Below are positions 14,834 through 57,639 of a stretch of 64,000 nt of DNA, piece by piece (position 1 is the stretch's first letter; every line of letters begins with the position of its first letter). Location: NCBI GenBank assembly GCA_965221955.1, contig CBDCTA010000017.1, positions 1 to 64,000 of the forward strand. Reading direction: 5' to 3'. The DNA comes from Gammaproteobacteria bacterium. GTDB taxonomy: Bacteria; Pseudomonadota; Gammaproteobacteria; UBA4575. The translations under genes were made by a program, and so were the position numbers. The notes beneath the pieces were generated by a model. The model ran no database searches and had not been told where the DNA came from. It worked only from the letters and a program-made list of their open reading frames with translations.

Positions 14834-15005
14834 TCCTGTGTGATCGGTGTGGACCAAGAGAATTGTACTCAAATCATCGATTTAGTAAAACCAAGATTTT
14901 GGGATATTTGAATACCTACAAAATAAGAAGCAAGGTTTGAGCAATGTAATCGATTAAAAACTAACCATTGCTATCTACTTGTTAGCAATCATTAACGCTA
15001 ACGAA

Positions 15006-16199
15006 TCAAATATTACCACCCAGCTCTGTAGCCCATTTTATTGCTTGAAGATACGCTTTTTGATACGCAGAACGATCGATTAAATGCATGAGCTCATCCC
15101 AATTTCCTTGCTCATATAATTTAATATTTCGCAAAACAGCTCCCATTTCTCCTTCATGAGTATCTAAGGCTGAACTCATTTCTTCTGTTAACGGAAGTGT
15201 TTCCAATACTTCTTGTAAAGACATATCTAGCAATGCATCTAAAATTGAAAACAGACCCACAGCAAAATATTGGTCATTATTTGGTTTTTCACCTGCCAAT
15301 AATTCAGCCATTTTTGCTCTCATCATACCCATGAGCATTAACTCTTTAGGCTTTTCATCAGAGAGTCTTAACATCAACATTAAACTGGCCCATTTTCTCA
15401 CCTCATCTGTGCCAAGCAATGTCAGTGCGTGTTTAATCGATTCAATTTTTATGCGCAAAGCATAAAAAGCCGAATTCATATAACGAAGCAGATGGTATGC
15501 AAGGGTTGCATCATGCCCAATGAGATTTTCAAGCTCATCCATGCTGACTTCTGGATTCTGCAGCTCAGAAATAAGTTTAAGCACAATCATTCGATTACCT
15601 TCCACACGTTTTCCAATTATCACTTGTGGTTTGCAAAAGAAAAATCCTTGGAAATAATCAAATCCTAGATCTTTGCATTGCTCATACTTTTCTTGAGTCT
15701 CCACTCTTTCGGCTAACAGTTTTATGTTGTGTTTGCGTAATATGTCTACATGATTATTTAAGTCCGCATCACTAAGAATACTGACATCCAATTTTACGAA
15801 TTGTGAAATTTCTAACAAACGATCGAACTTAGGTGTATAAATAAAATCATTTAATGCGATACGATAACCAGTGCGCGCTAACTCTTCTAAACCCGTTTGC
15901 AGCGCCTCATCTGCAACTTCATTTTCCAACACCTCCAAAACAATTTGTTCTTGCATTTGCGGTAGCGGTAATTCACCCATTAGAAAACCGCGTGTCATAT
16001 TAATAAACGCAAAGCGATTTCCAACAATATTTTCTAAACCAATATCGACCAGAGCACTGATAATGACATCTGAAGTGGCCTTATCTTCATCCGAAACATC
16101 TGCCTGGTCCGTAGCTTTCTTACGATATAAAAGCTCGTATGCAAAAACATTCAGCTGATGATCATAAATAGGTTGCCGCGCAAGAAAAATAGTAGCCAT
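15006..16199 (-). CDS. EAL/HDOD domain protein (YuxH-like c-di-GMP signalling protein)
   Basis: FLARQPI..AYELLYR, LAERVET, YFQGFFFCKP, followed by a helical HDOD domain (LLRYMNSA, GLFSILDALL). Confidence 0.9.
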   Translation of the reverse strand: MATIFLARQPIYDHQLNVFAYELLYRKKATDQADVSDEDKATSDVIISALVDIGLENIVGNRFAFINMTRGFLMGELPLPQMQEQIVLEVLENEVADEALQTGLEELARTGYRIALNDFIYTPKFDRLLEISQFVKLDVSILSDADLNNHVDILRKHNIKLLAERVETQEKYEQCKDLGFDYFQGFFFCKPQVIIGKRVEGNRMIVLKLISELQNPEVSMDELENLIGHDATLAYHLLRYMNSAFYALRIKIESIKHALTLLGTDEVRKWASLMLMLRLSDEKPKELMLMGMMRAKMAELLAGEKPNNDQYFAVGLFSILDALLDMSLQEVLETLPLTEEMSSALDTHEGEMGAVLRNIKLYEQGNWDELMHLIDRSAYQKAYLQAIKWATELGGNI

Positions 16200-16345
16200 T
16201 TGTCTTTTTTTGATACTGCATAGGTATTGCAGCTAATTGAATAAAAATTAACTATCACTAATTAAACGGCAAATGTTGATTATTCTTTAAAAATTAATCA
16301 CGTGTTGGTGATATATAGGTATTTGACCTAGCGAGTATTGGGATA

Positions 16346-16498
16346 TGAGCGCAAGGATGCGCGAATAGGATACTCATCAGAGCCGATGCAGCAATATAGT
16401 TAGAGGGATTCAAAAATATCTGCTTTCGGCCAATTAGTGAGCCCATGGATGGGCGAATATGAGTTACAACATGGATGTTGTATCAGATTAAAGTCAGA
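16346..16498 (+). repeat. two tandem ~92-bp units, each with two stem-loops (GGA hexaloops); the first is followed by a truncated palindromic site at 16416-16437
   Basis: TGAGCGCAAGGATGCGCGAATAGGA... (16346) versus TGAGCCCATGGATGGGCGAATATGA... (16438); both align to the reverse complement of 17155-17214. Confidence 0.8.
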
Positions 16499-16508
16499 CT
16501 AAATTAAA

Positions 16509-16536
16509 ATGTCCGCTTACGGCCAATAGCGGACAT
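16509..16536. repeat. 28-bp palindromic site P1
   Basis: ATGTCCGCT-TACGGCCAAT-AGCGGACAT, 11 bp beyond the stop of the 165-aa gene. Confidence 0.88.
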
Positions 16537-16547
16537 CCCATATAAAG

Positions 16548-17045
16548 TTATTTTCTAATAGTCTTTATAGAATTAGTAATACCCTTTGCTCCAAAAATAA
16601 GAAAAAGGGCAATTATAAGCTCAAAAAAGGTAGTTACCATCGAGGCTTTGTTCTCTAATAAGGCAAGCGGTGAATATAACTTTTCTTCACTGATAAATAG
16701 TGAATACAAAAACCAGAACACAAGGTCAGAAAGAACAAAAAATAAAAGATAAGTCCCCAAGAGTATAAAACCAAGATGATAAAAATTATCTGAATTAAAG
16801 TTATGTTTAGGCTCGTCTTCCAATTTGAATGGATATATTCTTTTCGCAATCGTAAGAGGAAATTTCCAAAGCAGTATGGATATAAATATAGCTAACCCGC
16901 TGACTAGGAAAATGTAGCCATACTTGCGAAATGTTATTGAGTCATTTACTAGCCATAAGGCTGAAACTAATTCTCTAACTGTAGTAAGTATTAGCGCAAT
17001 TGCTAATAATCTTGCTGCTACAGCAATTATTTGTTCTGGTTTCAT
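16548..17045 (-). CDS. hypothetical 4-TM membrane protein (cassette-like cargo gene)
   Basis: 165-aa ORF with four hydrophobic stretches and a GGAG RBS; AT-rich by eye; bracketed by P1 and P2. Confidence 0.8.
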   Translation of the reverse strand: MKPEQIIAVAARLLAIALILTTVRELVSALWLVNDSITFRKYGYIFLVSGLAIFISILLWKFPLTIAKRIYPFKLEDEPKHNFNSDNFYHLGFILLGTYLLFFVLSDLVFWFLYSLFISEEKLYSPLALLENKASMVTTFFELIIALFLIFGAKGITNSIKTIRK

Positions 17046-17076
17046 AATACAGCTCCCTAATACTTACTTTGTATTA

Positions 17077-17104
17077 ATGTCCGCTTTGGGTCGAAAGCAG
17101 TCAT
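17077..17104. repeat. 28-bp palindromic site P2
   Basis: ATGTCCGCT-TTGGGTCGAA-AGCAGTCAT, 31 bp upstream of the ATG at 17045. Confidence 0.88.
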
Positions 17105-17128
17105 AATTATAGACGCAATCTGATATTC

Positions 17129-17226
17129 CCAACCTGTTCTCCATTCTAGTTCAACTGACTCTAATCTGTTGCATCGTCCCTGATGGACATCCTATTCGCG
17201 CATCCTTGCGCTCACCTCCCTGCGCT
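17129..17226 (-). repeat. conserved 'platform' repeat with GGA hairpins
   Basis: 17129-17185 is colinear with 40384-40441; 17189-17214 is a perfect 26-bp inverted copy of 16346-16371. Confidence 0.85.
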
Positions 17227-17250
17227 TATACTTTGAGCCGAAAAAAAACT

Positions 17251-17697
17251 TTATTTAAGCATCGCCTCCAACCTAGAAGCACTGAAACCACTCATTTTTT
17301 GATTACCAACCAAGATTAACGGAACACCACTGCCACCTAGTTGCTTATATTTTCTATTTGCACTTTCACTTTTTTCAATATCATATTCTTTGTACTTAAT
17401 CCCATTACTTTGCATATATCGTCGAGCTTCAGCACAGTATCCACACCAACTTGTTGAATACATTATTACTTTCTTTTGTTTAGCCAGTTTCTTTGTTTTT
17501 ATATCACTTGCTTTTGAATACGCTGAATCACTTAAACCATCAGCATTGTTAACATTCGTATCAATCTCAACTTGCTCTGCTTTGGGCAGGGGCTTATCTG
17601 TGAAGATGACTCGACCGTTTTCGTCAACCGATTTATAGATTTCTGCACATAACACTGTAGGCAACAAAATAACGAGAGGCAAAAATAACTTTTTCAT
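17251..17697 (-). CDS. secreted DUF4124 plus glutaredoxin-like domain protein
   Basis: Signal peptide, AEIYKSVDENGRVIFTDKP (DUF4124-like), CGYC redox motif, GVPLI. Confidence 0.85.
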   Translation of the reverse strand: MKKLFLPLVILLPTVLCAEIYKSVDENGRVIFTDKPLPKAEQVEIDTNVNNADGLSDSAYSKASDIKTKKLAKQKKVIMYSTSWCGYCAEARRYMQSNGIKYKEYDIEKSESANRKYKQLGGSGVPLILVGNQKMSGFSASRLEAMLK

Positions 17698-17699
17698 TT

Positions 17700-17924
17700 T
17701 CAATATCCTTGCTCTTCCAGTTCTTTCTTACGTTGCTCGGCAGAATCCATTATCGTTTGTTCAACACCATTAGCTTTATCCAAAGCCGTTTCGTATCCTT
17801 TAAAAACATTATCGTCACTTAACTTTCCAGACTCTGGCTTTTCTTTTTCAGCCACATAAGATTGATCGCTACACCCTATAACAAGCAGTGAAAAAAGTAG
17901 TATTGTTGAAGCGAGATATTTCAT
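17700..17924 (-). CDS. small hypothetical lipoprotein
   Basis: Lipobox-like LVIGC after a hydrophobic signal. Confidence 0.7.
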   Translation of the reverse strand: MKYLASTILLFSLLVIGCSDQSYVAEKEKPESGKLSDDNVFKGYETALDKANGVEQTIMDSAEQRKKELEEQGY

Positions 17925-17948
17925 ATACATAACCAACCTGTATAGAAA

Positions 17949-18269
17949 TTATAGGTCCAACCAAAGCTTCTTAGGTTGCCGCATGCCGGCTATTTTGCAC
18001 CCTTGCTGACCATAACCGTATGGGAAAAGCCCATATACATACTTGCGCGTCGCTTTCTCAGGCCCCAACTCTTCTTTTAGCTGTTTAAGTATTTTACGTA
18101 ATTCCGGAACTGCGCCATGATCAGAATAGTATTCTCGAATAAGTCGAATTAAATTCCAACGTTCTTCTGTGAGCTCAACGTTTTCTTTTTTTGCAATAAA
18201 CTCTGCAATTTCTTCTGTCCAATCGTCCGGATCAAGAAGAAAACCATCAGCGTCAGTATTAATATCCAT
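17949..18269 (-). CDS. DsrC/TusE family protein lacking the terminal cysteine (RspA-like)
   Basis: TDADGFLLDPDDWTEEIA, LTEERW, LFPYG..QQGCKIAG; ends KKLWLDL. Confidence 0.85.
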   Translation of the reverse strand: MDINTDADGFLLDPDDWTEEIAEFIAKKENVELTEERWNLIRLIREYYSDHGAVPELRKILKQLKEELGPEKATRKYVYGLFPYGYGQQGCKIAGMRQPKKLWLDL

Positions 18270-18273
18270 TTTA

Positions 18274-18636
18274 TTAACTTTTACTAAAGAACAAATAACC
18301 TGCGAATGCAATGAGAATGAAAGAGAATATCTTTTTAAAATTAGCAGTTGAAACATGCTCTAACAAATGCGGGCCAATTTGCGCACCAATGATTCCACCC
18401 AAACCTAATGCAATGGCAATTTTAAAATCTACATTAGCAAACTTAGAATGCGCAAACACAGCAGAAGCAGAAATGATTAAAATCGCAAGGAACGAAGTAC
18501 CTACAGCTTTTTGTGCGGTATATCCAAGTGCAATGAGCAATGGCACCATGAGAAAACCACCACCAAGCCCAGTGAAAGAAGCAGCAATACCGATGAATAA
18601 ACCCGAAAACAATAGAATTGCATAGTTGAGTGCCAT
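18274..18636 (-). CDS. TauE/SafE family sulfur-compound transporter, half-size (120 aa)
   Basis: GLGGGFLMVP, AVGTS, GGIIGAQIG motifs; a single repeat unit. Confidence 0.85.
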   Translation of the reverse strand: MALNYAILLFSGLFIGIAASFTGLGGGFLMVPLLIALGYTAQKAVGTSFLAILIISASAVFAHSKFANVDFKIAIALGLGGIIGAQIGPHLLEHVSTANFKKIFSFILIAFAGYLFFSKS

Positions 18637-18662
18637 AATGACTTCCTTTACGTTTACCTAAG

Positions 18663-20043
<1,381 letters not shown>

Positions 20044-39261: not shown

Positions 39262-39289
39262 ATGACTGCTTTAGGCCAATAGCAGTCAT
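39262..39289. repeat. 28-bp palindromic site P3
   Basis: ATGACTGCT-TTAGGCCAAT-AGCAGTCAT. Confidence 0.88.
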
Positions 39290-39358: not shown

Positions 39359-40199
39359 TCATTTAATCTCAGATAAAAGATCAGGATTTGTGACTAGCTT
39401 TCTTACCCCCATGAGCATGATCTTCTTTAAATACATTATCATTACACCACTTTCCAAGTGTATTAATATCTAACTTGGCGCACTTAGGACGAACACTCCA
39501 AGTGACTTGTAGTGGAGAGCAGACCTGTTCTGTGTATTTAGGACCTGTCGTAGAACCCAAGAATTCTATGGGCTTCCCTGTATTGGCTGGAATCATCTTA
39601 GCTTGATGCAAACCATTTACTTTATTTCCTTCATAAGATATGTCATTAAAATCAAGTGCAGAATTATCATTCACAAGCGTAAATACTTGCGTCTCAACTC
39701 GTAGATTTGGATTTGCACAACTCTCTGATAAGCATGATCCCAAGCCTTGGCCTGGCATTACATCACATGAACTATGTACCCAATGTACTTCAATCGTGTC
39801 TCCAGGATTTAAACCTTTACATACCGTGTCTCCAGGTGGCATCAATTCTGTTTTGCTGAGTGATTGACTTATATTGCACTTATATCCTCCTCCAGATCCG
39901 TTTTCACCATCACCCGCAAAAATTGAGAATGCCTCTGCCTTATGTTCCGCATTATTATGGAAATGTATATTGCACAAATTCATTTCTTTATAATTGGGCG
40001 CTAATGCAAAAACTCTTTTGTTTGTACCAACAACGCTATCAATATCTCTAGGTGTTTGTGGCCCATAGCCTTGACATGCAGTCGCTTTGATATCATTTGA
40101 ATGTAATTCAGCATCAGGGAGCTCTTCTTCACCGATACAAACTATTGGTAGTGAAATTAAGAGAGATGTAATTAATGTTTTAATATTTAGATGCCTCAT
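39359..40199 (-). CDS. secreted delta-class carbonic anhydrase-like protein (C-terminal 1-bp frameshift at the C-run 39406-39410)
   Basis: GPQTPRDI, CNIHFH..AEHK, IEVHWVHS, GSTTGP, CSPLQVTWSVR, DHAHG; removing one base gives HAHGVRKLVTNPDLLSEIK*. Confidence 0.82.
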
Positions 40200-40235: not shown

Positions 40236-40360
40236 ATGTTCGCTTTGGGTCGATAGAAATTTGCTCCTCGACAATTGCTTCCTGCATTGCTCTACCTTCT
40301 GCATCCATGCAGTCGTACAATTTCTGCACTTCCACCCTCCATGGTGGTCGTAGCAGTCAT
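40236..40360. repeat. palindromic site P4, split by a ~95-bp GGA-hairpin insert
   Basis: ATGTTCGCTTTGGGTCGATAG (40236-40256) ... TAGCAGTCAT (40351-40360); the insert shares GCACTTCCACCCTCCATGGYGGTCGT with 56335-56360. Confidence 0.8.
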
Positions 40361-40383
40361 TTTGAGCCTATACTTTGAATTCT

Positions 40384-40441
40384 CCAACCTGATCATATTT
40401 CTAAATCACTTAACTCTAATCTGTTCACATCATCCAAGATG
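40384..40441 (-). repeat. second copy of the conserved 'platform'
   Basis: CCAACCTG-N7-TTCTA-N2-TCA-N4-ACTCTAATCTGTT..CATC-N6-GATG, colinear with 17129-17185. Confidence 0.85.
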
Positions 40442-40447
40442 CGTCTC

Positions 40448-42169
40448 TTATTCGCGTGTCCCTACGCTCACTTCCATTCGCTCAGGTGGGGCCAACTTAG
40501 GAACCGCTGCTAATAATTTCTTTGTGTATTCATGCTGAGGATTCGTCAACACTTGCTCCACCTCGCCTTGCTCTACAATTTTACCTTGATACATCACTGC
40601 TACACGGTCGGCAAAATAGGCCACGACGGACATGTTGTGGGTAATAAACAAGTAACTGATTCCAAATCGTGCTTGAAGATCATTTAATAAATCCAAAATT
40701 TGTGCTTGCACTGAAACATCTAATGCACTAGTCGGTTCATCACAAATAATTATTTTTGGATTTACTGCTAAGGCTCTGGCAATACATATGCGCTGGCGTT
40801 GACCGCCCGAAAATTCATGTGGATATCGTAAGTGTGCATCTTTTGATAAACCCACTTGTTCTAATAATTCCAACACACGCTTTTTTCTACCTTCAGAATT
40901 TGGCACTACATTTAATGCCTTCATTCCTTCTTCAATAATATCACCCACCAACATGCGTGGATTCATCGAAGAGTAAGGGTCTTGAAAAACGATTTGCAAA
41001 TTGGTGCGTTGTTCTAATAATTGTTTTTTATCAATTTTATGAATCGGCAAGCCTAAATAATGCACCTCTCCCGAAGTGGGCTGCACTAATCGCAAAACTC
41101 CTTTACCAACAGTAGTTTTGCCACTGCCTGACTCACCAACTAAGGCGACTGTATGACTAGGTGGAATTTCTAATGAAACGCCATCTACAGCTTTCACATA
41201 ACCCACTGTGTGTTTAAAAATTCCTTTTTTAATTGGAAAATGCACTTTCAAGTCATCTATCTTTAATGTTTCGTCTTGCTTACTTGCATGAGTGCTTTGA
41301 GAACTATCATGCTGTTTGTCTATTCCATTACTTGCAAGTAATGGCTTGCCTCGTTTCTCCATCGCTGGCAATGCCGCAAACAAGTCCCAGCTATATTGAT
41401 GTTGCGGTGAAGAGAAAAAGATTTCATTACTAGATTGCTCTACAATTTTTCCTTGCTTCATTACTGCTACATGATCTGCTACTTGTTTCACCACGGCTAA
41501 ATCATGAGTAATGAACAAAATAGCCATTTTGAATTTTTCTTGTAGTTCATTAATCAAATCCAAAACCCGTGCTTGAATGGTTACATCCAAAGCCGTAGTA
41601 GGTTCATCTGCAATAAGAAGTTTTGGTTCACAAGCTAAGGCTATCGCAATCATTACACGCTGTTTCATTCCTCCAGACAACTCATGCGCAAACGTGTCAA
41701 TAGTGTGCGATGGATCTTTGATATTCACCGCATCGAGCAAATCTAAAGCTCGTTGCCACGCCTGTTTTTTGCTCATATTTTTATGACGGATGAGTACTTC
41801 AGAAATTTGTTTCCCAACTTTTACAACTGGATTAAGTGATGTCATCGGTTCTTGGAAAATCATCGAAATTCCACTGCCACGAATATCACGCATTTCACGC
41901 TCAGGTAACGTCAGCAAATCTTTGCCATCAAAATATACTGACCCTGACGTAACCCGCGCGGCCTCAGGAAGTAGACGAATTACGGATAATGCCGATACAG
42001 ATTTGCCACTACCTGATTCACCCACCAGAGCAAACGTTTCACCACGTTGCACCTCAAAACTAATATTATCTACTGCGGTAACTTTGCGTTGTCCAGTATC
42101 AAACACCGTTGTTAAATTTTCTACTCTCAACAAAGGTTGCTTTTGATCAGTAGTATTTTCGCTGCTCAT
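40448..42169 (-). CDS. peptide ABC transporter, fused double ATPase
   Basis: Two GESGSGK Walker A motifs, LSGGMKQR and [12 protein letters not shown]. Confidence 0.95.
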
Positions 42170-49219: not shown

Positions 49220-49723
49220 TTACTCCCAAAATTTCCACCATTTTCTGCTGTGCTCTTCTCTAGAGGCTTGACCTTGCTCTGAGCCCTTACCTAATTCCTT
49301 TCTTTCCTGCTCAGCTTTTTTCGCTTTCTGTTTTTCTAAACCTTTTGAATCCTCATATTCATCATCGTCGTCATGATCATCTCGATCATCATCGTAGTCA
49401 TCCTCATCATCATAATCGTCGTCGTCGTCGTCGTCATGATCATCGTCTTTTTTACCTTTATGATCACGATCTTTTTTATGCTTTCTATCATGATCATGGT
49501 CCTCATCGTCATCATCATGATCGTCATCGTCACTATCGTCATCATCATGTTTCATCATTTTATCTTTATGCTTGTGATCTTTTTTCACATGCTCTTTGTC
49601 TGGCTTACCTTTTTTATCTTTGTGACTTCCAGCCTGAACAACAGAAAAAGCTAGAAAAAATGAGAACAACAAAACTAAAATAATTTGCATTAGTGAATTT
49701 TGTTTTCTATTGTGACTTTGCAT
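49220..49723 (-). CDS. secreted His/Asp/Lys-rich low-complexity protein
   Basis: Signal peptide, HDDDD-type repeats, C-terminal GLEKQ...KELGKGSEQGQ...RKWWKFWE. Confidence 0.8.
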   Translation of the reverse strand: MQSHNRKQNSLMQIILVLLFSFFLAFSVVQAGSHKDKKGKPDKEHVKKDHKHKDKMMKHDDDDSDDDDHDDDDEDHDHDRKHKKDRDHKGKKDDDHDDDDDDDYDDEDDYDDDRDDHDDDDEYEDSKGLEKQKAKKAEQERKELGKGSEQGQASREEHSRKWWKFWE

Positions 49724-56249: not shown

Positions 56250-56319
56250 CAACAAAATAAAAACAACAACCATGCTATTCCCCCTCAACCTTCGTTTAAA
56301 AACTCTTCCGCAACAGAAA

Positions 56320-57639
56320 TTATGCTCCTGCAAAGCACTTCCACCCTCCATGGCGGTCGTTCTTAAAGCCCGTGCTTGCTTGCAATATACCAGTCTCTCC
56401 CTCCGTCCTTCCAATAATCACCGCCCCACATGAATCACTAAACACATTCACTGCGGTTCTGCACATATCCAACACTCTATCCACCGCCAATATCAAACCA
56501 ATCCCTTCCGCTGGCAAACCTATAGCAGCCAAGATAATCGCAATGGCCACTAAACTTGCAGAAGGAATGCCTGCTACACCAATGGAGGTCATGAGCGCCA
56601 AAATAACAATCGTTACTTGCATACCTATAGTTAAATCCAGCCCATACGCTTGTGCAATAAAAATGGCTGCAACACATTCATACAATGCAGTGCCATCCAT
56701 ATTCACTGTGGCACCGAGTGGTAATACAAAACTGGTAACCCTATTTGAAACCCCTGCACGGTCCTCCACACAATCAATCGTCACCGGAAGCGTTGCGGAA
56801 GAGGATGCAGTAGAAAACGCAGTGAGTAACGCCGGCGCCATGGCTTGGTAATGTTTTAGCGGACTGACACCACCCACAAAACGCAATAACAATGGCATAA
56901 CGATCACAATATGGATGAGCAGTGCGATAATTACAGTAAAGAAAAATACTAACAGCGGTTTAAACGCATCAAAGCCTGAAACCGTGACCACTTTTGCAAC
57001 GAGTGCAAACACTCCGATGGGCGCAAATTTCATTACTAAATCTGTAATGAGCATCATCACATCAAACACACCTTGCCAAAACGTTTGCAGCACTTTTTGT
57101 GTGTCGAGTTTTATGCGCGTCATAAAAAAACCAAACAACAAGCTGAAAAAGATGATGCCGAGCATTTGACCTTCTGCGGCGGCATGCACAATGTTAGTAG
57201 GAATCATGCGTAGGAAAATGCCTACAACATCTCCTGCTGTTTTACCTTCAACTTTTTCCATCACCTCACTGGTGTCTGCACTGAGGCCCAACATATCTTT
57301 TGCAGGCTCGCCATCTACTATGCCGGGTTGAACCACATTGACGACTGCAATACCAATTAAAATTGCGAAGGTGCTGGTGAGCACATAGTAACCAAGTGTT
57401 TTGCCTCCTAAACGCCCAAATGATTCACCTGAACCTAAGTTGCTGACCCCCATAATGATGGAGGAGACAATCAACGGCACGATGATCATCTTCAAGGCAT
57501 TGAGGAAAAGTTTGCCGACGAAATCGAAAACTGAAACGAGTGATATACCGAAAATGCTTGTATCAGGGCTAACTAACCAACCGACAAGCACGGCAAGGAG
57601 CAGTGCGATTAAAATTTGCCAATGGAGCTTAAGCTGCAT
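56320..57639 (-). CDS. dicarboxylate/amino acid:cation symporter (DAACS, GltP-like)
   Basis: AFSTASSSATLP, PLGATVNMDGTA, DRVLDMCRTAVNV. Confidence 0.95.
   Translation of the reverse strand: MQLKLHWQILIALLLAVLVGWLVSPDTSIFGISLVSVFDFVGKLFLNALKMIIVPLIVSSIIMGVSNLGSGESFGRLGGKTLGYYVLTSTFAILIGIAVVNVVQPGIVDGEPAKDMLGLSADTSEVMEKVEGKTAGDVVGIFLRMIPTNIVHAAAEGQMLGIIFFSLLFGFFMTRIKLDTQKVLQTFWQGVFDVMMLITDLVMKFAPIGVFALVAKVVTVSGFDAFKPLLVFFFTVIIALLIHIVIVMPLLLRFVGGVSPLKHYQAMAPALLTAFSTASSSATLPVTIDCVEDRAGVSNRVTSFVLPLGATVNMDGTALYECVAAIFIAQAYGLDLTIGMQVTIVILALMTSIGVAGIPSASLVAIAIILAAIGLPAEGIGLILAVDRVLDMCRTAVNVFSDSCGAVIIGRTEGETGILQASTGFKNDRHGGWKCFAGA

Follow-up and report, generated by a model that had tools for sequence, protein, structure and literature searches.

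Genomic context of the 57-bp stretch

We analyzed a 64,000-nt stretch of contig CBDCTA010000017.1 from a Gammaproteobacteria bacterium of the UBA4575 lineage (this whole stretch is referred to below as the window). A sequence of about 57 bp at 17129–17185 recurs in it at 40384–40440, on the minus strand and next to a gene cassette bounded by 28-bp palindromic sites in both places (loci A and B). The original prediction took this pair for a resident capture or expression platform, comparable to the attI site and Pc promoter of an integron; as a whole, this interpretation was partly supported. The 57 bp are, with hardly any doubt, the inner part of a dispersed end unit of 100–140 nt, composed of a module M, an optional spacer, and one 28-bp site. 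The platform is a lineage-specific mosaic repeat, probably serving as the host-side end of a cassette system. The genome of the window (G000) was 2.69 Mb in length and consisted of 29 contigs, with 96.6% completeness and 4.3% contamination.

The following features were identified at locus A (bit scores are those of the covariance model R1, described below):

17251..17703, minus strand: flanking host gene A, glutaredoxin and DUF4124; its stop lies 36 nt ahead of M, and its orientation is that of M
17144..17215, minus strand: module M, copy A, 72 nt, beginning with GTGAGC, 81.4 bits; hairpin 1 at 17198–17211 (loop AGGA), hairpin 2 at 17170–17187 (loop GGGA)
17129..17185, minus strand: platform copy A, comprising the hairpin 2 stem (17172–17175 / 17182–17185), AACAGATTAGAGT (17158–17170), the variable tail of M, and CAGGTTGG (17129–17136)
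17105..17143, minus strand: spacer of the long (140-nt) end unit, with the CAGGTTGG box 31 nt ahead of the 28-bp site
17077..17104, minus strand: 28-bp palindromic site P2, S2 type, minus-strand reading ATGACTGCTTTCGACCCAAAGCGGACAT
16548..17045, minus strand: cassette A gene, encoding a 165-aa membrane protein without a Pfam family
16509..16536, strand unassigned: 28-bp site P1, at the downstream end of cassette A
16437..16508, plus strand: inverted module M', short (100-nt) form abutting P1, 91.7 bits; preceded by a 21-nt half site at 16416–16436
16345..16416, plus strand: module M'', a second, outer inverted copy

Locus B contained the following features:

40448..42169, minus strand: flanking host gene B, an oligopeptide-type ABC transporter ATPase, its native C-terminus replaced by the start of M
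40399..40471, minus strand: module M, copy B, 75.7 bits; its first 23 nt are the last codons and the stop of the ATPase reading frame
40384..40440, minus strand: platform copy B, with CAGGTTGG (40384–40391), AACAGATTAGAGT (40413–40425), and the hairpin 2 stem (40428–40431 / 40438–40441)
40236..40360, minus strand: split 28-bp S2 site, left arm 40351–40360 (P4), right part 40236–40253
40254–40350: element N, an insertion of ~97 nt in the site centre, with GGA-loop hairpins and a CGACC direct repeat on both flanks
39381..40199, minus strand: cassette B gene, encoding a delta carbonic anhydrase (PF10563, 254 bits)
39262..39289, strand unassigned: 28-bp site P3, at the downstream end of cassette B

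The letters of both 57-bp copies were confirmed. The gapped pattern CCAACCTG-N7-TTCTA-N2-TCA-N4-ACTCTAATCTGTT matched without mismatch at 17129–17170 and 40384–40425 and nowhere else in the window; these two matches of a 42-nt pattern compare with 0 expected, and none of 100 shuffles gave any match. The pair was also detected by a repeat search of the window as a direct repeat of 42 nt with 76% ungapped identity. The distances to the neighbouring sites were as predicted, 24 nt (17104 to 17129) and 23 nt (40360 to 40384), and the two loci are indeed homologous structures, not chance palindromes. The length of about 57 bp proved too short: blastn aligned 141 nt at 71% identity (E 4e-13), and the iterated profile covered 17215–17076 and 40471–40346 on the minus strand (about 17076–17215 and 40346–40471). 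Both copies had been placed just after the stop of a host gene; this holds for the glutaredoxin/DUF4124 gene (stop at 17251), whereas the ABC ATPase frame ends inside the repeat, at 40448. Similarly, P4 is part of a 28-bp site, but merely its 10-nt left arm, the rest lying at 40236–40253 past the insertion 40254–40350. The predicted platform is thus a composite of hairpin 2 and the AACAGATTAGAGT block of M with the CAGGTTGG box of the spacer.

A 54-nt inverted repeat of 85% identity (16340–16393 / 17167–17220) corresponds to two M copies of locus A (M'' and copy A), which form a convergent pair. The whole of cassette A, sites included, has a 78%-identical copy in an array of cassettes on contig C5 (3077–3669). 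The genes flanking locus A (an HDOD/EAL gene and the glutaredoxin gene; window 15000–19300) are not neighbours in the congeners G014, G016, and G017, and the island is a point of gene-order difference between species.

Structure of the end unit

Module M (72 nt) starts with (TA)GTGAGC and, in its minus-strand reading in the window, continues with hairpin 1 (for example GCGCA-AGGA-TGCGC), GAATAWGAG, hairpin 2 (CATC-AGGGAC-GATG or TGCAAC-AAGGAT-GTTGCA), AACAGATTARAGT, and a variable tail; both hairpins are short, covary, and carry NGGA loops. The spacer, present in the long form only, is ~38 nt in length with CAGGTTGG about 30 nt ahead of the site, and the third part of the unit is one asymmetric 28-bp palindromic site. 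The CCAACCTG block is not part of M but of the inter-site spacer common to array repeats; the GGTTGG box is not peculiar to M either, as it was also found 30 nt ahead of the second site in 42 array repeats. Ahead of GTGAGC, 15 of 30 copies from other species had TA, and those of G000 had GT or TA, which is a loose preference only; where TA is present, M opens with the stop codons TAG and TGA. No fixed tetranucleotide was found ahead of M in the copies of G000 and these 30 copies.

Iterated nhmmer searching of G000 yielded 217 unit hits; 63 include M and 54 begin at model position 7 or earlier. In 23 of the 63 M copies an intact 28-bp site was located 67–73 nt from the M start (short form) and in 10 at 105–113 nt (long form), eight of the latter having CAGGTTGG at about 79–82 nt; in six further copies the site was farther away. 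This genome-wide profile check bears out the predicted fixed positional link to the 28-bp site. Of 39 sites after M, 34 had the same central polarity, 3 had the opposite one, and 2 were ambiguous (our reading of the table).

In about 16 of the 63 copies, M directly abutted the first 21 nt of a 28-bp site (our reading of the flanks). The joints, marked here by a slash, read …CCCAAAG/TGTGAGC or …GGCCAATTA/GTGAGC and occur at 16416–16436 of the window, at C29:132250–132278 and C14:4192–4214 of G000, and elsewhere; they give the impression that M, together with its site, entered an older site at a single fixed position.

Covariation was tested on 35 of the 54 M copies (alignment A2), those in DNA already fetched, and the covariance model R1 was built from the same 35. 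RNAalifold gave hairpin 1 only; hairpin 2 was placed by eye and then tested. Pairing was observed in 85.4% of stem cells compared with 74.8% in shuffles (none of 500 reached the observed value), double changes in 58 cells compared with 22, and slid-partner controls gave at most 46% pairing. The pair formed by positions 7 and 16 was AU (13), GC (10), or CG (3), and that formed by positions 34 and 43 was AU (16) or UA (14). The loops conformed to NGGA in 42 of 54 copies for hairpin 1 and in 43 of 54 for hairpin 2. Single-sequence folding was uninformative (z-scores −0.24 and −1.64). Since the stems covary, M would act as a single strand, and its hairpins most likely serve as single-stranded protein-binding elements.

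Distribution and placement of module M

The exact 13-mer ACTCTAATCTGTT occurred three times in G000, each time inside an M copy. At least 23, at least 33, and at least 68 M copies were found with R1 in three complete genomes of congeners, with 150 candidates scored in each. BLAST with the locus detected the repeats in 14 of 14 congeners and in one of four other genomes of the family, while R1 applied to 151 genomes (one per family of the class) gave no match in 149 other families and matched G000 and one congener only. The end unit is therefore a dispersed repeat restricted to this genus and family, whereas the 28-bp site alone occurs in many phyla. With about 60 copies per genome, it does not correspond to a single resident platform of the kind that attI represents beside intI.

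The end unit lies directly behind the stop of a chromosomal gene, on the same strand, with the same face of the site pointing away from the gene. In G000 the gene behind the 5' end of M was co-oriented with M in 49 of 60 cases (binomial p = 8e-7), genes being called by our own crude open reading frame (ORF) picker (at least 60 aa, longest first) and three of the 63 copies being omitted, which had no gene within 400 nt. In the congeners G004, G013, and G017 the outside gene was co-oriented in 23 of the 30 best-scoring of 124 copies (p = 0.005). The start of M ranged from 25 nt before to about 130 nt after the stop of the gene behind, and overlap was frequent.

Past the site follows variable DNA with one to many small genes parted by more 28-bp sites, and such islands are often closed by an inverted end unit. 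Sixteen adjacent convergent M pairs were found, 0.18–12.6 kb apart, two of them enclosing only a site; M is accordingly not confined to the upstream side of cassettes, where the original prediction had placed it, but also occurs in inverted orientation where cassette islands end downstream. The gene past the site was co-oriented with M in 24 of 59 cases and opposed in 35, which lends no support to M as an expression platform for the captured gene.

An M copy was located within 4 kb of xerD or xerC at six of eight xerC/xerD loci in the four genomes with both positions known (G000 C23:9235–10853; G013 C1:1265001/1269085 and 1814032/1816580; G017 C1:423421/426771 and C2:247745/251048; G004 C1:1904168/1906753). 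This count is a lead only, because orthologous loci are not independent.

Fixed ends and changing cargo

The FHA-domain gene and the ABC ATPase gene of locus B are adjacent in most congeners. The locus was empty in G012, G015, G016, and G017, in which the flanking genes were 18–44 nt apart with no M and nothing between them. In G000, G005, G006, G007, and G008, M was joined to the same last ATPase codons, with the native C-terminus replaced. The cargo past M was a delta carbonic anhydrase in G000, a 217-aa ORF in G005, an array of at least three cassettes in G007, and a LysR-type gene on the other strand in G008; in G006 the contig ended past M. An unrelated gene of ~156 aa without M was present in G009, G011, and G013, and other fillings in G010 and G014. 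The carbonic anhydrase gene of cassette B was found elsewhere in three congeners, G009, G011, and G012. Of 12 comparable congeners, 7 lack M at the orthologous site, which means that the stretch at locus B was itself inserted.

At locus A, a half site and M followed directly after the same glutaredoxin gene in G016 and were succeeded by the next core gene without a cassette, while G013 had a site and another small gene but no M.

Two haplotypes of one region were present in G000 on contigs C14 (1–16000) and C23 (3228–27587), which indicates strain heterogeneity within the assembly. Their flanks were 99.0–99.5% identical and carried the same end units on both sides, while the enclosed arrays measured 4.06 and 12.4 kb and had one 1.5-kb block in common. 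All breakpoints (C14 4317, 5854, 7345, and 8380) fell within a few bases of 28-bp sites found by profile. The haplotype pair is the best evidence that exchange would take place at the 28-bp sites while the end units stay. The capture-site-like behaviour of the original prediction is retained in this sense: the stretch stands on the host side of variable cassettes and is constant while the cassettes differ among species and haplotypes.

Contigs of four DNA runs gave fragmentary cover of ~2–4x on 15000–19000, with repeat stretches attracting more contigs than the flanks. Apparent joints from 16536 to 17076 in these contigs come from other cassettes with the same sites.

28-bp sites, arrays, and cassette cargo

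In several contigs the array unit consists of a gene, site 1 (ATGTCCGCTATTGGCCGAAAGCAGACAT type), a spacer of ~45 nt with the GGTTGG box, and site 2 (ATGACTGCTAACGACCCAAAGCGGACAT type), all units having one orientation; the array of contig C5 comprises eleven such junctions. The sequence of site 1 nearly equals the reverse complement of site 2; the two sites bounding a gene are thus inversely oriented. A scan of 74 ORFs from arrays and M-bounded islands revealed varied accessory functions or no Pfam family: besides the delta carbonic anhydrase of locus B, a globin, OsmC, Na/H exchanger, M48 peptidase, HSP20, GNAT, cyanase, PPK2, and cation efflux protein were encoded. No recombinase or transposase was found among these 74 ORFs.

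The exact 18-nt word of site 2 occurred in at least 122 places in species-representative genomes, mostly with a matching left arm. Among the matches listed were metagenome-assembled genomes (MAGs) labelled Thiotrichales, Woeseiaceae, Nitrospinaceae, and Nitrospirota, as well as Alpha- and Betaproteobacteria and Xanthomonadales; the sequence of the site is kept across Gamma-, Alpha-, and Betaproteobacteria, Nitrospinota, and Nitrospirota. Full M modules were present, among the matches listed, at seven loci only, in a few gammaproteobacterial MAGs. The plasmid collection, searched with one array repeat, gave no match. The two site types adjoin each other in Nitrospinaceae and Micavibrio MAGs, with no spacer, and form a composite of ~56 nt, the inner arms of which are variable yet complementary, and a Woeseiaceae MAG has a GGTTGGAA motif between the sites (these MAGs are among L107, L067, L089, and L056).

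Other features of the window

Hairpins of element N read, for example, CTGCATGGATGCAG and CCACCATGGAGGGTGG on the minus strand. The element was also found at 56300–56360 of the window, where a fragment lies within the last codons of a 439-aa gene (56320–57639), and in G000 at C22:41243–41478, C22:168228–168360, and C3:28530–28664. The combination of M followed by an N-split site recurs at several loci. At 49334–49563 (plus strand) lies an extended, imperfect series of 9-nt repeats of ATCATCGTC type; its minus strand probably encodes an acidic or histidine-rich segment.

A probable docking end without an integron integrase

We consider it fairly probable, from the comparison of genomes, that M forms the docking or boundary end, on the host side, of a cassette system that comprises many loci and has no integron integrase. 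The end unit would be the fixed docking end, and the 28-bp sites would be the points where DNA is broken and joined as cassettes come, go, or are exchanged. M would be a polar arm, inserted together with its site and stationary afterwards. One possible role of M is that of an accessory or boundary element for recombination, which fits the fixed spacing and polarity; we know of no parallel for a recombination accessory arm with GGA loops. Alternatively, M might provide GGA-loop hairpins to the 3' untranslated RNA of the upstream gene, on the sense strand of which it lies.

Several findings weigh against M as a docking end. Eleven of the 60 M copies were not co-oriented with the gene behind them, and all these orientations depend on the crude gene calls. 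An intact 28-bp site was lacking within 260 nt of 24 of the 63 copies (in at least six of them, window copy B included, the site was split by element N, and the rest were truncated). No M copy was detected beside P3 by the profile search, which leaves the far end of locus B without M. No direct repeat or target-site duplication flanked the 16 convergent pairs. The five species with M at the ATPase gene may go back to one ancestral insertion and hence not be independent, and the movement of cassettes is deduced from comparison only, no circle or junction having been seen. Stem mismatches gave no strand signal (G-T compared with A-C: 24 and 37 over all pairs, 7 and 6 in the core of hairpin 2), so that they do not point to RNA folding on the GGA strand.

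To these points the outcome of the search for an enzyme has to be added. We failed to find an integron integrase (IntI), a REP-associated tyrosine transposase (RAYT; REP, repetitive extragenic palindrome), or a dedicated recombinase linked to the repeats in G000 and the other genomes of the genus. With TIGR02249, the best proteins of G000 were XerD (83 bits) and XerC (77 bits), the cut-off being 265; an IntI over the cut-off was encoded in one of the 15 genus genomes, where it was located beside canonical attC sites. Y1 transposase (PF01797) was absent from G000 and present in one of the 15 genomes. Serine recombinases were encoded in four of the 15 and a large one in G000, none linked to the repeats. 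XerC and XerD were the only tyrosine or serine recombinases present in all 15 genus genomes; the tyrosine recombinases of G000 were XerD (on both haplotype contigs), XerC, and one phage-type integrase. The only match to the dif consensus in G000 at up to 5 mismatches, C4:59807–59834, is unlike the 28-bp site. The tyrosine recombinase encoded 1 kb from the largest array proved to be the housekeeping XerD, its gene being followed by dsbC.

Alternative explanations

M may instead be an RNA element, namely the 3' untranslated end of the gene in front or a cassette leader, the NGGA hairpins of which bind CsrA. CsrA recognises GGA in hairpin loops (PMC13443453, PMC4894983). In such a case the ~60 M copies, together with element N, would tie genes to the Csr system or form a CsrA sponge, which is compatible with a docking end. 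The NGGA loops on covarying stems speak for this explanation, as does the GGA-loop hairpins of element N, the stems of which are unrelated to those of M; M also lies on the sense strand of the upstream gene in the 49 of 60 and 23 of 30 copies mentioned, one csrA gene is encoded in G000, and no CsrB or RsmZ match was found in G000 at E up to 0.1. On the other hand, the stems show no excess of G-U over A-C, and in a cassette transcript reading through, the inverted M that closes the island would be antisense. No Rfam family was assigned: at the gathering score the whole window contained three tRNAs only, relaxed searches of both loci gave chance-level hits, and a CsrB hint on element N scored 7.6 bits (E 6). 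Hits of the RsmY model reached 17.8–24.9 bits compared with a cut-off of 57, and similar sub-threshold hits occurred in 10 of 14 control genomes. We regard the RNA explanation as possible but doubtful. The best RsmY-model hit in G000, C29:520150–520229 (24.9 bits, sub-threshold), may be the real Csr/Rsm small RNA of the organism, or chance.

An extended form of the docking-end reading, which we put forward only tentatively, is a distributed non-integron system. Mobile docking ends, dozens of them and attached to gene 3' ends, would capture and exchange cassettes at a site of 28 bp with an Xer-like (11-6-11) layout. The enzyme would be either a host one, for which XerC/XerD are the only universal candidates, or an unrecognised one, and the GGA hairpins would couple captured and neighbouring genes to CsrA.

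The spacer might also contain a cassette promoter, in which the CAGGTTGG box (CCAACCTG end) is the −35 element and the −10 element overlaps the first two bases of the 28-bp site, so that every cassette would be transcribed on its own. The GGTTGG box stood exactly 30 nt ahead of the site in 42 units, and a conserved TTGGxA-17-xAAAAT register was found in 32 of 53 boxed units, 37 of 53 scoring 8–9 of 12. However, the consensus scan for sigma-70-type sites found 0 at locus A compared with 3.9 expected and one unrelated site at locus B compared with 5.1 expected, so that none was found in either window copy; copy B would score 7 of 12 by our own count, and the run of A ahead of the site may merely extend the palindrome. 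Because the register sits in the spacer, a weak cassette promoter is conceivable for the GGTTGG box only; a promoter serving every cassette appears rather unlikely.

As a selfish mosaic repeat, M would be a small non-autonomous element behind genes with no capture role, similar to bacterial interspersed mosaic elements (BIMEs), enterobacterial repetitive intergenic consensus (ERIC) sequences, or Correia repeats. It would have accumulated where insertion harms least, and the link to the site would come from a common preference or from M targeting the site. The high copy number, the modular make-up (M, spacer, site, N), and the truncated copies agree with this, and so do two empty M-site-M elements of about 180–216 nt and the occurrence of M at places where gene order differs between species. 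The half-site joints seen in about a quarter of the copies (~16/63) are what an insertion into the site would leave. Nevertheless, the spacing to the site is fixed and quantised, the polarity to the site centre is fixed, and M persists at one position with differing cargo; target-site duplications and a transposase candidate were not found. We consider this explanation unlikely.

A strict integron platform (attI and Pc) served by an integron integrase would account for the placement of M at both window loci, where it precedes the first cassette on the host side and keeps a fixed distance to the site, but the 63 copies in both orientations and at both island ends, the absence of IntI from G000, and the true integrons of G002 and G016, the cassette sites of which are quite different in sequence from the 28-bp sites, make it highly improbable. 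In this strict form it was ruled out by copy number and the absence of IntI; no integron integrase accompanies the repeat. None of the present repeats was found by the unit profile among the integron cassettes of G002 and G016; one weak site-like hit was obtained in G002, on the far side of intI.

Equally improbable is a REPIN/RAYT system (REPIN, REP doublet forming a hairpin), in which a RAYT would have spread the pairs of 28-bp palindromes as REP doublets, with M as a linked mosaic motif. The palindromes are paired, inverted, about 45 nt apart, and extragenic; against this, the Y1 enzyme is as rare as described above, two complete genomes being without any, the repeats were not present within 1.5 kb of either Y1 gene of G004, the site sequence is common across phyla, and the arrays comprise one repeat pair per small gene in a single orientation. 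A miniature inverted-repeat element of a DDE transposon was rejected, since inverted pairs are present, yet no target-site duplication was found at any of the 16.

Comparison with known systems

By analogy, the integron platform and the Acinetobacter dif modules appear closest in logic and mosaic extragenic repeats closest in form; the end unit lacks defining features of every system compared. Limited keyword searching of the open-access literature did not return a description of such repeats or arrays, and a search with a sequence string returned unrelated primers only.

With integrons the system shares small, mostly single-gene accessory cassettes in one orientation, a composite repeat of two inversely related simple sites after each, a host-side element that is constant while cassettes change, and arrays that differ between close strains. 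It differs in having no IntI and in a site sequence without the core motifs of the true integrons of G002 and G016. Here the sequence of the site, and not only its fold, is conserved across phyla, and instead of one attI there are dozens of docking ends tagged to gene 3' ends, often at both ends of an island.

Acinetobacter dif modules are described as bounded by 28-bp sites of alternating orientation, many per replicon, and as carrying no dedicated recombinase, host XerC/XerD being presumed to act on them (PMC7399989, PMC6449649, PMC12907356). As in these modules, inversely oriented 28-bp sites flank each gene here, with the haplotype breakpoints at the sites, and XerC/XerD are the only tyrosine or serine recombinases universal in the 15 genus genomes. 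In contrast to them, the 28-bp site is unlike the dif of its own genome, and its two arms are nearly identical; the system is chromosomal, forms long arrays, and has an M arm that dif modules lack.

The accessory sequences of cer and psi (Xer sites of plasmids) and the accessory subsites of res are double-stranded binding sites for known proteins. Like them, M has a fixed length and polarity and flanks a core site on one side only, but it shows hairpin covariation, is a mobile repeat, and forms inverted pairs rather than direct repeats.

BIME/REP, ERIC, and Correia repeats are modular palindrome mosaics behind genes, high in copy number and lineage-specific. M is likewise modular, high-copy, lineage-specific, and placed behind genes; unlike them, it is tied to a site bounding exchangeable cassettes, with neither RAYT nor target-site duplication. 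Repeated short hairpins with GGA loops are also found in CsrB, RsmY, and RsmZ; M is below the Rfam thresholds, has two hairpins per copy only, and lies behind protein genes.

Significance

To our knowledge, gene-cassette capture is known almost only from integrons, which combine a single integrase and a single attI with folded attC sites; the Acinetobacter dif modules are the other case. For annotation, M accounts for unusual C-terminal extensions of the genes next to it, for breaks between contigs, and for many small ORFs that are spurious. In this organism, an integron-like logic is found without an integron integrase, and a genus-specific repeat marks each of the dozens of chromosomal positions concerned. 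Provided that the exchange is real and an enzyme can be found, the definition of a cassette docking site would become an experimental question, and the system would be a second general route of accessory-gene trade among marine bacteria.

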